Shown in pieces: positions 3,038 through 63,625 of a DNA stretch of 64,000 nt. The DNA is from Euglena gracilis (Eukaryota). The translations under genes and the position numbers were made by a program. The notes beneath the pieces are model-generated. The model saw only the letters and a list, made by a program, of their open reading frames with translations. It searched no databases and was not told the origin of the DNA. The stretch covers positions 48,277,847 to 48,341,846 of the forward strand of contig CP154954.1 in the NCBI GenBank assembly GCA_039621445.1, read 5' to 3'. The number at the start of each line of letters is the position of its first letter. Position 1 is the stretch's first letter.

Positions 3038-3613
3038 CAAGGGATGCACAAGGTTGGAGGACTTTCGGTTTGCAATTCATGGAAGCCAGCTGGCCAAACC
3101 TGCGCTTCTTCGGGGCTCCCCCCCTGGCACAGGCCCTTCGGGTGGTAAACCACACCAAGCTTGAGGCTGTTGGTTGGGCTGTGTCCAAAGACTGAGTGAC
3201 CAGCATCCCCACGGGGGAGGGGGGCAGTTTTCCCCAAGCCCAAATCCACCCACCCAAGTTTTTTCGAAGACACACACAAACGACCCCCAACACCCACCCA
3301 CCCATCCAAAATTCACCCAAAATCGGAGGAAAAACCCTGAAAAAAATTCCCAGGCGACCAATGGCGAACCCCTCCGGGGGGGGGGAGTCCAGGACGGTCC
3401 TCAACGGAAAGGAAACTTCCCGACCCAGCACAGTCACTGAAAAATTCATAAGAAAAATGGATAAAGATGATAATATTTTGGCAAAAATTGTTCGACTTCG
3501 GGGGAAAAAGTGATTTCTGGCATCCTTGGACCACCGCTACCCAAAACGTCAAAAAATACGTTTTTCGACTTTTTGTTTTCTGCCTCCATTCATCCAGGAT
3601 TGGCCATTGGCTG

Positions 3614-3889
3614 CAGGCTTCTTTTTAAGCCCCGAAGGGGGGGGGGAGGGGGGGGCCCCCCCCCCCACCCCCCCAGGGTGGCGGGACCCCCCCCCCGGGG
3701 GGGGGGACCCCCCCAAAATCGGGCCCGTTAAAGGCAATTTTCAAAAAATTTCGGCGCTTCGCGCCGAAAAGGTATACCCAGCGCCTCCGGCGCGGGACCC
3801 CCCCCCCCCGGGGGGGGCGCGGGCCCGCACCCCCCACCCCCCCCCCCCCCCCCCCGGGGGGGGGGTCAGGTGACTTAAAAAGAAGCCTG
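3614..3889. mobile_element. MITE family A (hAT-like)
   Basis: 16-bp TIR CAGGCTTCTTTTTAAG; perfect 8-bp TSD ATTGGCTG. Confidence 0.93.
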
Positions 3890-4344
3890 ATTGGCTGTCC
3901 CTTTGGCCAAAAGGCGGTCCTTAAGGGAACCCACCCCCCACCCCGATGGTGGGCAGGCCGGGGGGGGGGGGGTTAGGCAAGTCTTTCATGAATCTATGGC
4001 TGTCTGTTTTTGCCCAACCAAAATAACGGAAAAGCTTCAGAAGTCGAAAGGATATGCGGCTTGATTGTGCTGCAGCAAAAAAAAAATGATCAGGACACCC
4101 AAGAAGAAAAGAAGCTGTGTTTGCCACGATGGGGCGGGAGCAGGTTTCGCCAGCACCGGGGACAGGGTTCAGGCAGGGCCGGACAGGGACTCGCCCGTCA
4201 CGACCCTGACACAGCGCCCTGGGTTGGCAAGAGGGCACAGGGGGAAACCCTCTCACTGTTAGCTGTGGGACGGTTCGCGGGTCAGGTCCACCGAGCTGCA
4301 GGAAGGGATGGGGGGCAGGGCGTAGGGGTGGGTGGGGGGGCGCC

Positions 4345-59413: not shown

Positions 59414-59921
59414 CACACACACACACACACACACGCACGCACACACACACACACACACACACACACACACACACACACACACACACACACACACACACAC
59501 ACACACACACCTTGCACCAAACCCTGTCAAAGCACTCAGGCAGTGGAAGGTGGAGGTGGTGCAGCGTCTCCAGGGTAACAGGACGCTGCAGGAGGAAGGG
59601 AGGGTCGATGGCACCCACGATGAAAACGTCTCCCAGACCCCATCGCTCCGCATATGCTCAGTGGGCTAGGCCAGGGGAGGGCTGTGAGGTAGGATGGGAC
59701 CACCATTGCACCTTGAAAGGAAAACATTCAACGGCACAGAAGTCTGTTGTGTGTTGCTGTGGTTGTGGTGTGCTGGTGTGTGTGTGTGGGCGTGTGGGGG
59801 TGTGTGTGCGCGTGTGTGTGGGGGTGTGTGTGTGTGTGTGTGTGTGTGTGTGTGTGTGTGTGTGTGTGTGTGTGTGTGTGTGTGTGTGTGTGTGTGTGTG
59901 TGTGTGTGTGTGTGTGTGTGC
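59414..59921. repeat. (CA)n at 59414-59510 and (TG)n at ~59775-59921, in opposite orientation
   Basis: Direct inspection. Confidence 0.95.
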
Positions 59922-61964
59922 AGGTGTGTGGGTGCATGTGTGGGTGCGTGGGTGGGTGGGTGTGTGGGGGCAATTGTGGGTGTGTGGGTGTGGGTGGCGG
60001 ATGGGTGGGGGTGTGGGGAGGTGGAATGCGCTTACAGGCATACAGCATTGACCATCCCAGTCAACCTCAGTTGGACCACAGGAAAAACTCCAAAGAAAGC
60101 CACTGCTGGACACACCCACATGAGAGGGGATGAACACAGATGCTAAAGATTTTCATTCAAATTTTTGGAGTGTTCCTTCGCATTTAGTTCTAAGGAGACC
60201 CCTGAGGATCATTCCACAGGCTCTGCTAACCAGCATCGAATCGTTGGCGAACCACCAAAAGAGTGGCGGGATCACCCAAGCGCAATTGAGCAATGGCTGC
60301 CTCTCGATACAAAAGGCAGTGCGGCAGGTGAGAGTGTGAGAAGAGGGCGAGGCTGGATTAGGGACGGTGCATGTGTCGGAGGCGGTCATGTGTAGGAGAC
60401 GCATGGTCAGTGGGCCAGCGGCTGCCGCTCCTGCCCCCACGGCTGCGGCTCCACCTCGAGCTGAGGCAGAGAGGGGAGGGCGACGGTGGGAGCCAAGCAC
60501 CTATGGCCAGAATCCCAGATTCAGCCACGGCGAGACACACCCAGTCACGCCCAAACTACGCTCCGGGCCCGTCAAATCACCAAAGGAGGCTTACAAAACA
60601 AAATTTGTTTGGGTGCGTTTTTTATTCAAAATTTTTGACCTTGTTATGTTCTGAGGGTATGGTTTGGGAGTTGGTTGAGGGTGAAGATGCTGTGAAAAGT
60701 TGTCGAAACAATCCTCTGGTCCTGAATTTTTTGGACACAGTTCAAAACTGCAATTATGGCGTTTCAAAACTGTTATATTCTGCATTTTATCCACATTTGA
60801 AAGGTTCTCTCAGCCATCGTCAGTTTGAGGTTGAGGAGGGTTGGACCCCCCCCAGCTCCAATTATATCCCAGTGGCTTGATAGGGGGGTTACTGCAACAT
60901 CGTCGTCCTTGGGGAAGGAGGCTAGTTCGAGTTCCAAAAGCCCAGGAGAGTGACATACATCCCAGTCAAATGTCCATTTTTTTTATAATCCGGCACCCCC
61001 CTTCCCAGACCAAATAATTCCCCCCCAAATAAAACCCGACAAATGCAAAAATCCAAGAATCACTCGCCTCACCCCAAATTTGACCCCACGCAACCTGTAA
61101 AAACGACTGAAATCCAAAGATGAGACTGATACTTTAGCATTTTTGAGGCCCAGGAGTCATGTGAAATGTCTAGTTGGAGAGCAATCTCACAATTAATGAA
61201 GTATTGGGGAATTGGGCGTTTGGGAACCCTGAAAACTCTTGGGGTCAAAGGTCGGTCAAACAGACTCGAAAAATAGGATCGTCACAACAAATAAAATAGG
61301 ATCGTCACCCCCCCCTGGATTTTCCAATTTTTCATTTCATTTACACCCCGAATTTTTTTCGCATAATCCTGCATAATGACGTGCTTTTGGGTCAATTTTG
61401 ACCTTGAAAATTGTGCAGGATTATGCGGGATAATGCGGGCCAAAATATTCCTACCTGAATAATGCTCAATTATAAGTGTTATAAAACAATGGAAAATATG
61501 ATTCAAGAATGACAAAACCTATTTTCTGGAAAAAAACTGCTGCTTCTCAGGGCCTGTTCTTTTTGCATTCTCACAAAAAAAAGCAAATTATACGGGATTA
61601 TGCGAGATTATGCAGTCTGCAATTTTCCCCTCCCCTGCCAGTGTGTAAATGCAACTGGGGGAACCCGGTCACCATCTTCGCACGGTAAACCCAGCAAGGA
61701 CATGAAGCACACTGCAAAGCTGGCCGGCCACCGAACCTGTATGTTCGAACTTCATGTGTTCGACTTTCCATCTCCATCCATCTTTTTTGTGCACATGGGT
61801 GGGTCTGGGGGGACCTCAGCAAACCGATACCTTTGGGGCCTCGTTTACACCTCAGGGCCCAAGCAAAGCAGCAGCCATGACAAGGAGGAAAAGAACGCAG
61901 GTCAAGGAGGAGAGTGGCAGCGCGTGGTCCTTGGGCAACGGGGGCACACAAATTCATCTTTCAT

Positions 61965-63625
61965 TTCTGAGGCGTGCATTGGCGGACCTGCCGGCCACAC
62001 ACCTCGGGCTCCTGCTTCTCCAGGAGTCCCCACACGAACCGGAGGAGACTGATGGCCAGCTTGATGCCGCACATCACGAGGTCCAGCAGGAGCGTGAAGA
62101 GGATGAAGTAGGCCACCATCCGCCAGATGCCGTCTGTGCGAGGCGGAGAGAATAGTGCAGAGAATCTCACACACAGAGAAAATGGCATAGCAGAGGTGAT
62201 CGCATCCGTCCATCCGAAGAATGGACTGATGTCGAGAAAATTGGCTCTGTGCACAGATTGGAAAAATATATGCATTTTGCAAATATTTTAAACATATCTA
62301 AAACCATTGCATAAATATACAAAAACATATGCATATTATTTATCGTTGACCTTATTCAATTTATTGAATTTACTAACATTGCACATGTATTTATATTTTT
62401 ATAAATAGTTCAAAAATAAATGCCTGCAGGGACTGGCAAACTGATTTTATGGCCAATATCTTGAGTTTGACGCTGATAACCAAATAATGACTGCCCTCAA
62501 GCCATAAAATAAACCCTGAGTTCATCATTTATCATTTAATTGTTTATTCCACGTTGCTTTCAAAAACTTATACCCACCACTGCAACCACTGCAAAAGACC
62601 GCATTATTGGCACACATTATTGGCAAACAGGCTCCTTTGACCCCCGTTTGTCTGGCCTCAGAAGCATAACGTGGACAAGACCAAGCCCACACGAGGCGTC
62701 GCACGAAAGTGCAGGCAGGAGGGCGGCACACACTGGGGCTGCCCATGTCCACGTCTGGCAGCCACGCCGGCAGCCACGACGTCCCGTCCTTGATCTTGAC
62801 GCAGTAGTGGCTGTTCGCCGCGACACAGCACTCCCGCTGCTTCGGGTGGCACGTCCACGTGGCCTTGAAATCTGGAGGGGGGCAGCGCGACTGAGCGCCT
62901 TCCAGACGTTGCTGGCCGGGGAATCCACATATGGCAAGCAAAAAACGGTTTGAAAATGAGAGACGACACAAAGGTACCATCCAAGCATGAAATAGAAGAT
63001 GCACATACCCCACATCAGCAGAAGCTTTGAGGGGTCTGTTTGAGTTTTCGGTCCCATTGTATTAATGGGGAAGACATGAAGATGCACAAAAAAGCTATCG
63101 TTCGTCTCCCTCGTGCTGGACTTTTGAAACTTCAACGACATCGAGTGTTGTCCCCTCCCATCCGGGAAAAAACTGCACGTTCCAGTTTTCAAAACCCCCC
63201 AAAAGACCCTCCATCATTTTTTTCTGCCGGTGCAGGCAGGGGGGGGGGCGTGCGCCACACTTTCGTTGGCGTGGTCCGGGCACGTCAGCAGCTGCAGCCC
63301 GCCGCCCACCGGGCCCGGGGGGAGGCCGAGGCACTTCTGGAACAGCTTGAACCAGGCTGTTTTTTTACCAACCCCGGGGGGGGGGGGGCGGTTTCCGGAG
63401 TGCCTATGAGTGCCTGCCCAGACAGGCACCCCCCCCCCCCGGGGTGGGGTCGGCACCCGAGTAAAATACGGCCTGGCTTGAACGCGCCGAGGGTCGGAGA
63501 GTAATAGAACTGCTGGGCGGCGGTCTTGCTGCAGGACTTCGGGGCGACGTTGACGCGGTTCGGCAGGGCCTCCAGGCAGGCGGTGGAGGTGCCCTTCAGG
63601 TACTGCAGCAGGTACGGCCCTGGGT
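61965..63625 (-). CDS. Cys-rich extracellular domain followed by a TM helix; multi-exon, continues toward the window end
   Basis: PYLLQYLKGTSTACLEALPNRVNVAPKSCSKTAAQQFYYSPTLGAF|KLFQKCLGL...TCPDH; WTCHPKQRECCVAANSHYCVKIKDGTSWLPAWLPDVD|ITDGIWRMVAYFILFTLLLDLVMCGIKLAISLL. Confidence 0.7.
63353..63475. mobile_element. 123-bp MITE inserted in an exon (relatives at ~18352-18570 and ~47790-48070)
   Basis: TIR CAGGCTGTTTTTTAC / GTAAAATACGGCCTG; perfect TSD GCTTGAAC. Confidence 0.92.

Follow-up and report, generated by a model that had tools for sequence, protein, structure and literature searches.

Inverted-repeat elements with 8-bp flanking duplications and the nonconventional introns of a cyclase gene in a 64-kb stretch of Euglena gracilis DNA

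The DNA considered here is a 64,000-nt stretch of the Euglena gracilis genome (GenBank assembly GCA_039621445.1, contig CP154954.1, forward-strand positions 48,277,847 to 48,341,846); "the window" below means the whole of it, and coordinates count from its first letter. It is GC-rich, eukaryotic sequence, and carries on its minus strand a gene of the adenylate/guanylate cyclase family and part of a metacaspase gene, along with 13 elements that have terminal inverted repeats (TIRs) and a flanking 8-bp duplication. The window holds a population of short, non-autonomous elements of the MITE type (miniature inverted-repeat transposable elements) together with euglenid nonconventional introns, and we propose that a sizeable share of the latter probably arose from such MITEs. 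The evidence comes from the 64-kb window, three homologous proteins, and the literature. An earlier note on this DNA had pointed out that spacers of 3 and 5 nt at the intron ends add up to the length of one hAT target-site duplication (TSD), and had suggested a possible transposon origin, in hAT MITEs, for the whole intron class; what it observed is largely confirmed, and its interpretation is partly supported.

The cyclase gene was located by homology. With a 58-residue exon as query, two eukprot cyclase proteins were matched, P0001 and P0002 (PF00211). In a tblastn search, P0001 (EG_transcript_1910), of which the product of the window gene is a paralogue or orthologue, gave 18 collinear, open segments that span 16 kb of the minus strand, from about 4.8 to about 20.4 kb. 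Identity to the homologues found is about 43-92% per exon. A Pfam search of ten single-exon open reading frames (ORFs) gave nothing at E<=0.01, the exons being too short. The gene and those of its introns that bear on the argument are listed here; flank identity is the number of matches between the 8 nt on either side of the CAG...CTG piece.

4350-20650 (ends approximate), minus strand: adenylate/guanylate cyclase-family gene, at least 20 exons
20350-20637, minus strand: intron 0, TIR element 20355-20634 plus 8 nt, 288 nt in all; its excision would restore ...ALPAMPVLLLTCVLAVSISVCSSIPVM
17646-19045, minus strand: nonconventional intron 2, GCT-CAGG...ACTG-GCGGG|G
16861-17124, minus strand: nonconventional intron 4, GAG-CAGG...CCTG-GTGGT|G; flank identity 6/8; junction 1 point under the homology optimum
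16147-16808, minus strand: nonconventional intron 5, by homology to P0001
15477-16024, minus strand: nonconventional intron 6, by homology to P0001
11472-14136, minus strand: nonconventional intron 8, by homology to P0001
8519-8950, minus strand: nonconventional intron 10, CGG...CTG
7801-8463, minus strand: nonconventional intron 11, by homology to P0001
6328-6466, minus strand: nonconventional intron 14; flank identity 5/8
4915-5152, minus strand: nonconventional intron 17, by homology to P0001
4404-4791, minus strand: nonconventional intron 18; the join reads ...HLKGKTLGMVAYELLGLADDP

A splice code for the nonconventional introns of Euglena has been published, 5′-N3CDG-/-CH'GN5-6|R, with genome-wide, knock-in and synthetic-intron evidence (Nomura et al., 2025, PNAS; PMC12501133). 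It was not used in placing the junctions: for the 17 gaps between homology segments, every in-frame, stop-free donor/acceptor pair was enumerated, the best matches to P0001 were retained, and the distances of CAG and CTG from these homology-best junctions were taken as offsets x and y. Over the 17 introns, 7 cases lie at (3,5), 6 at (4,4), and 5 at (2,6), all with x+y=8; several offset pairs appear along this line because the junctions slide. Control motif pairs gave 1 (GAC/GTC) and 0 (CTG/CAG). The comparison with P0001 shows the predicted excised length to be that of a CAG...CTG element plus 8 nt (7 of the 17 introns at the best junction). Homology fixes only this sum; its division into 3 and 5 is taken from Nomura et al. 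(2025; PMC12501133), and on these two footings the arithmetic of the earlier note stands. If near-best junctions and the degenerate motifs CDG and CHG are allowed and the last intron is included, N3-CDG...CHG-N5 fits 10 of the 19 introns of the gene. The introns at 4404, 4915, 6328, and 7801, which had been reconstructed from the letters of the window, now have independent backing from protein homology to P0001.

The register of the terminal stem was also tried as a test, by way of the offset sum, and was set aside as non-discriminating: a helix starting one pair further inward shifts the sum by 2. Two more introns of the gene have features of their own. Intron 13 (6520-6900, minus strand) has a perfect 9-bp CAG...CTG terminal stem (CAGGCGGCC/GGCCGCCTG) and a 7-nt junction repeat. 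A cyclase motif, ...IDKYIG|DCVMAFW, is split by a short intron at 6062-6155 (minus strand), which has CAA at its 5′ end and agrees with CTG-N5|G at its 3′ end; P0001 carries an insert at this point, so that homology leaves the junctions unfixed.

Intron 0 is the case in which an element and an intron coincide, the only one among the 13 elements. The element (20355-20634) is 280 bp long, with CAT...ATG ends, inverted termini CATAGATTC..., and a stem of 11/12, and is flanked by a perfect 8-bp duplication, TTGCTGAC (minus strand). Upstream, the minus-strand frame reads ...ALPAMPVLLLT and then meets stops if the element is retained; downstream it reads LLTCVLAVSISVCSSIPVM, where P0001 has an uninterrupted PVLLLTCLLAIFISVCSTSPVI. 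Removal of the element plus 8 nt gives PVLLLTCVLAVSISVCSSIPVM, to be compared with that P0001 sequence, and the conserved ...PVLLLTCVLAV... is regained. The RNA of the intron is predicted to fold end to end, pairing its ends. Counting the terminal C and TG of the element, the direct repeat around it (20342-20647) amounts to 11 nt (TGTTGCTGACC), so that the splice junction can slide over 12 positions. In structure this predicted intron is a TSD-flanked MITE, and to judge from homology it would be removed together with one copy of the duplication.

The elements themselves number 13 in the window, 11 with perfect duplications and 2 at 7/8. Ten were already in the earlier note, and all ten have inverted termini and an adjoining 8-nt direct repeat, perfect in nine and 7/8 in the one at 37483-37977. 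The other three (17716-18948, 20355-20634, and 21690-22393) came from an unbiased scan in which 8-mer direct repeats were sought next to inverted repeats; mismatch-free outward extension from inverted repeats misses elements whose terminal bases differ. The elements other than that of intron 0, with one decayed relative, are as follows (no strand assigned).

3614-3889: MITE; TIR CAGGCTTCTTTTTAAG 16/16; TSD ATTGGCTG 8/8, at 3606-3613 and 3890-3897
2791-3037: decayed older copy of the CAGGCTTCTTTTTAAG family; flanking 8-mers 5/8
9145-10061: MITE in cyclase-gene intron 9; TAG...CTG ends; TSD GGGGTGTG 8/8
10082-10440: MITE in cyclase-gene intron 9; CAG...ATG ends; TSD GGTGCCAC 8/8
11548-11810: MITE in cyclase-gene intron 8; family of 3614-3889 (86% identity), in opposite orientation; TSD CCCCTGTG 8/8
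14744-15022: MITE in cyclase-gene intron 7; CAGGGGTTTTTTTAAG; TSD GTAGGGTC 8/8
17716-18948: 1233-bp TIR element nested in nonconventional intron 2; TIRs CAAGCACCT / CAGGCACCT; TSD GCCAGAAC 8/8; newly listed
21690-22393: TIR element; 13-nt perfect TIR CAAGCACCTCCAG; flanks CACACGTC / CACACATC 7/8; newly listed
23926-24048: 123-bp MITE nested in one of the conventional (GT-AG) metacaspase introns; TIR 16/16; TSD GGCTGGAC 8/8
30152-30339: MITE; AAG...CTG ends; TSD AGCCCGGA 8/8
37483-37977: MITE; CAGGGAATTTCTTAAG; flanks GCCATGAC / GCTATGAC 7/8
54716-55030: MITE; CAT...CTG ends; TSD ACCCCCAC 8/8
63353-63475: 123-bp MITE; TSD GCTTGAAC 8/8

Chance is excluded as the source of these duplications. Among CAG...CTG pairs with a stem of at least 10/12 (n=15), flank identity is 8/8 in 4 and 7/8 in 1; when the flanks of the same 15 pairs are shifted, the maximum is 4/8 at an 8-nt shift and 6/8 at a 3-nt shift. 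With the stem threshold lowered to at least 8/12, flank identity is at least 7/8 in 6 of 368 pairs, and the corresponding controls give 0/368 (two shift controls), 0/149 (GAC..GTC), and 0/355 (CTG..CAG).

All the elements appear to be non-autonomous: no protein domain is recognisable in 10 ORFs from three of them, and no ORF longer than 443 aa occurs anywhere in the window. Their interiors form several groups, one family being present in both orientations; an element reads CAG...CTG whichever way it lies. The 28 element termini have a common consensus, CAGGSWTTTTTTTAAG, so that the "several unrelated families" of the earlier note are an overstatement, even with interiors that differ. Of these termini, 26 start with C and 1 with T; the second base is A throughout, the third is G or A in 24, the fourth is G in 24, and the fifth is G in only 12, with C in 16.

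MITEs of the hAT superfamily are flanked by 8-bp TSDs and have short TIRs that start with CAG or TAG, with a terminal motif YARNG and a target consensus nTnnnnAn. The elements here resemble them in TSD length and in the CAG or TAG start of their short TIRs; they differ in that the terminal motif and target consensus are matched only partly, and in that no transposase was found in 10 ORFs from three of them. Measured against nTnnnnAn, the TSDs have A at position 7 in 7 of 13 and T at position 2 in 3 of 13. They have a bias of their own, ending in AC in 6 of 13, starting with G in 8 of 13, and having A or T at position 7 in 12 of 13; this non-randomness suggests a palindromic target preference. 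A hAT-like superfamily is our best guess, drawn only from the 8-bp duplication and the CAG/TAG ends.

Seven of the 13 elements are nested within other introns, six in introns of the cyclase gene and one in a conventional intron. One case has three levels: at 18352-18453 a member of the 63353 family (85% identity) sits in the 1233-bp element 17716-18948, which in turn sits in nonconventional intron 2 (17646-19045); that intron would measure about 159 nt without its insert. Most MITE interiors hold long opposed poly-G and poly-C runs (e.g., 3640-3700 and 3800-3865), and many spurious inverted and direct repeats arise from these in scans. Open frames across the empty sites of MITEs are common in this GC-rich DNA and do not discriminate an exonic location of the intact copies. 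In a metagenome scan the CAGGCTTCTTTTTAAG family had 0 matches, which means only that Euglena DNA was not met there.

Partial element copies are truncated at both ends of the window (1-235 and 63911-64000). Positions 13-235 are 85% identical to the element 11548-11810, and 63911-63958 are 96% identical to the start of the element 9145-10061. Long microsatellites, of GT/CA runs and CATA/CATG/TACA-type tetranucleotide arrays, lie at 1950-2200, 13400-14080, 26100-26300, 27760-28000, 42220-42570, and 59400-59520, several of them within introns.

The second gene gives a smaller sample of introns of both kinds.

23284-25542, minus strand: part of a metacaspase gene, matching eukprot EG_transcript_9548 (P0003, PF00656)
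26051-26345, minus strand: nonconventional intron, located upstream within the metacaspase gene; flank identity 5/8; fits the code

One metacaspase exon matches EG_transcript_9548 over 61 residues at 100% identity, and the next at 95.5%. The part covered by P0003 has three conventional GT-AG introns (24786-25362, 23667-24592, and 23407-23487). The intron at 26051, proposed in the earlier note, gains support from its join, which reads continuously through what we take to be a metacaspase motif. Two other candidate introns from that note, 27120 and 47169, carry N5-CAG on the plus strand, and their best stem partners, at 9-11 of 14 pairs, are ambiguous. A homologue search with the ORF at 28164-28499 gave no match.

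Set beside the elements, the introns have similar ends. CAGG and CCTG ends are found in 10 and 9 of 12 introns, respectively, to be compared with the G at position 4 in 24 of the 28 MITE termini, and 6-11 of 12 pairs form in the terminal stems of the 12 introns. In all 12, a purine opens both the intron and the exon that follows it. In the elements, a purine stands at TSD position 6, with which the exon would begin, in 20 of 26 element orientations, and the full published code, purine included, is already present in 6 of the 13 elements (10 of the 26 element-orientation cases). Nested MITEs aside, the intron sequences have no second copy in the 64 kb; introners as a group come in many near-identical copies, a good number of them introns.

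A mechanism consistent with these observations can be outlined. The MITEs have TIRs of about 13-16 bp, mostly CAGG...CCTG, and all make an 8-bp target-site duplication; the nonconventional introns, a class removed from RNA without the spliceosome and released as circles, obey where they fit the published rule a pattern of N3-CAG (5′ end) and CTG-N5 (3′ end) with a purine next. Since the spacers sum to 8, excision at the RNA level would remove the CAG...CTG element together with exactly one copy of the 8-bp duplication. If a MITE landed in an exon, in either orientation, its TIRs could form the terminal stem; cuts 3 nt before CAG and 5 nt after CTG would then regain the reading frame as it was before the insertion. 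The insertion would thus be born as a working nonconventional intron. The duplication would decay later, because the N3 and N5 halves inside the intron could drift freely. A sizeable share of Euglena nonconventional introns would most likely have arisen from such insertions.

Several observations weigh against this origin. In the 11 older introns, flank identities are 3, 6, 0, 3, 1, 3, 2, 5, 1, 1, and 5 out of 8, with a mean of 2.73/8 vs 2.78 in mismatched pairs (permutation p 0.64), so that the excess of 8-nt flank identity expected by the earlier note does not appear in the mean of this sample. Identity of at least 5/8 is found in 3 of the 11, vs 6.4% of mismatched pairs (permutation p 0.036), a weak hint of ageing; with n=11 the flank identity data neither support nor refute decay of the duplication. 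Beyond CAGG the stems of the old introns are GC-rich, while the TIRs of present MITEs are T-rich. At the homology-best junction, 8 of the 19 cyclase-gene introns fit neither GT-AG nor the code, and in intron 13 homology forces x+y=10 rather than 8; junction placement is itself approximate, with a homologue of about 43-92% identity per exon. A 3′ spacer of either 5 or 6 nt is tolerated experimentally (PMC12501133).

Nor are junction repeats specific to nonconventional introns: the three conventional metacaspase introns (23407-25362, minus strand) are flanked by repeats of 4-8 nt (CACAGGTG type), and junction repeats are reported at 84.4% of all introns, conventional ones included (Nomura et al., 2025; PMC12501133). 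The CAT...ATG ends of intron 0 fall outside the experimentally permitted CDG/CH'G, and its element has 0 further copies in the 64-kb window and 0 in the metagenome scan (the latter again meaning only that Euglena DNA was not met there). As to the elements, a Pfam search of 10 ORFs from three of them turned up no transposase family, the one match (E 0.13) being at chance level and below the cut-off, and the "hAT" of the earlier note is not supported here.

The proposed MITE origin can be carried further than we have taken it. The excision system might measure from the base of the TIR stem, 3 nt and 5 nt outward, and so be matched to one type of transposon; every exonic CAG...CTG insertion with an 8-bp duplication, in either orientation, would then be born scarless, most of the several hundred thousand nonconventional introns would be aged copies, and the exon-first purine would be target position 6. 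This is possible, though we lean towards doubting it.

Stronger again is the position of the earlier note in its full form: nonconventional introns would, as a class and without exception, be decayed hAT MITEs, and the splicing machinery would have been selected specifically to neutralise them. All the evidence for a MITE origin serves this version equally, and Nomura et al. suggest in their discussion both that MITE-like elements are a possible source of the introns and that the machinery may mitigate harmful insertions (PMC12501133). It nevertheless seems unlikely. The code is missing in about 39% of E. agilis nonconventional introns (PMC12501133) and in the 8 of 19 here, which together with the unremarkable mean of the 11 older introns speaks against "whole intron class". 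Membership of the elements in hAT is only putative, and diplonemids also have noncanonical introns with paired ends (PMC12621601). "Tuned" splicing goes beyond what can be read from sequence, which does not give the direction of adaptation: pre-existing machinery could have filtered which transposons persist in genes. Transposon origin as such fares better. Intron 20350-20637, the six elements that already carry the code, and a published repeat in E. agilis (Milanowski et al., 2016) speak for it, and the lack of a mean flank excess against it.

The resemblance of elements and introns might also be a coincidence, with the spacers set by the geometry of the splicing enzyme, the duplication by an unrelated transposase, CAG...CTG happening to be common to both, and the MITEs being mostly passengers in pre-existing introns. 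The nesting of 7 of the 13 elements in introns, with only one coinciding with an intron, is what would be expected of passengers, and the flank identities, the tolerance of a 6-nt 3′ spacer, and the difference between stems and TIRs past CAGG fit as well. Coincidence would, however, have to account for three independent features that concur (CAGG...CCTG ends, terminal pairing, and a sum of 8), for an intron that is an element with its duplication intact, and for a published 8-nt repeat at a newly gained intron (PMC4770533); we consider it quite unlikely.

A narrower objection concerns intron 0, whose element could have inserted recently and disruptively into a cyclase gene copy or allele that is non-functional, and not be spliced at all. 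The intron is predicted from sequence; its ends are outside the tested code; identity per exon between the gene and the transcripts found is only about 43-92%, so that its expression is presumptive; and there are the eight introns that fit neither code nor GT-AG. Against this, every one of the 18 homology segments is open and they run collinear along 16 kb, the element with its 8 nt comes to 288 nt, the terminal stem has 11 of 12 pairs, and the junction is Y|R with an exon-first purine, as in the other 11 introns. A dead copy is accordingly improbable. Double-strand-break repair as the origin of the 8-nt repeats at new nonconventional introns, the reading that Milanowski et al. (2016; PMC4770533) gave of their own gapC intron 4, is highly improbable, as it predicts neither a fixed length of 8 nor terminal inverted repeats, nor the recurrence of 8 bp at 13 TIR elements that lie outside exons.

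Much of the MITE origin preferred here has precedents. A MITE-like origin of euglenid introns was put forward when no euglenid transposable element was known (Milanowski et al., 2014; PMC3935182), so that the idea was not the earlier note's own but has been in print since 2014. The legend to Figure 3D of a 2024 review in Mob DNA gives CAG/CTG at +4..+6 and -8..-6 as TIRs, with TSD-like junction repeats (PMC11282704). The idea in both is the same as here; their passages on it name no TSD length, no superfamily, and no 3+5=8, whereas the window has actual elements with 8-bp duplications. The strain-specific new intron 4 of gapC in E. agilis ACOI 323 has an eight-nucleotide direct repeat, like the elements here, and differs in that break repair was invoked for it (Milanowski et al., 2016; PMC4770533).

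In agreement with the code of Nomura et al., ten introns of the cyclase gene and one of the metacaspase gene fit it here, with terminal pairing and an exon-first purine. The main text of that paper does not tie the spacers to a target-site duplication; "hAT" occurs in it 0 times and "target site" only in another sense (PMC12501133). We found no published statement that 3+5 is an 8-bp or hAT-type duplication, a provisional absence, as subscription papers and supplements lay largely outside the search.

Comparable cases in other eukaryotes differ in how the intron is removed. In the introners of Micromonas and Aureococcus, DNA transposons with TIRs and TSDs likewise become introns, and the TSD helps to define the excised piece; they are spliceosomal GT/GC-AG introns with 3-nt TSDs, unlike the nonconventional excision and 8-bp TSD of Euglena (PMC11282704). 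The non-canonical introns of Amoebophrya, in which inverted repeats measure 8-20 nt and direct repeats 3-5 nt (Farhat et al., 2021; PMC7789003), and the MITE-derived, non-canonical introns of Fritillaria borealis (PMC11282704) are similar in having ends paired by inverted repeats and direct repeats that overlap the exon/intron boundaries. Their direct repeats, at 3-5 nt, are shorter, and their removal is thought to be by a modified spliceosome (PMC7789003; PMC11282704).

Already known, then, are the N3-CAG...CTG-N5 code, the idea of a MITE origin, and an 8-nt repeat at a newly gained intron; the 3+5=8 reading is a sound and apparently unstated synthesis of these published pieces. Added here are a demonstration of the "+8" that draws on homology only, and one predicted intron that is a TSD-flanked element.

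The spacers of the splice code may simply be an 8-bp target-site duplication split in two. If they are, a single explanation would cover how the code is spaced, why junction repeats are frequent, and why such introns are still being gained, and transposon-born introns would exist independently of spliceosomal splice sites. This would bear on the origin of the nonconventional introns of E. agilis, which are removed by an unknown machinery and are the majority class there, at 71.8% of introns (PMC12501133).

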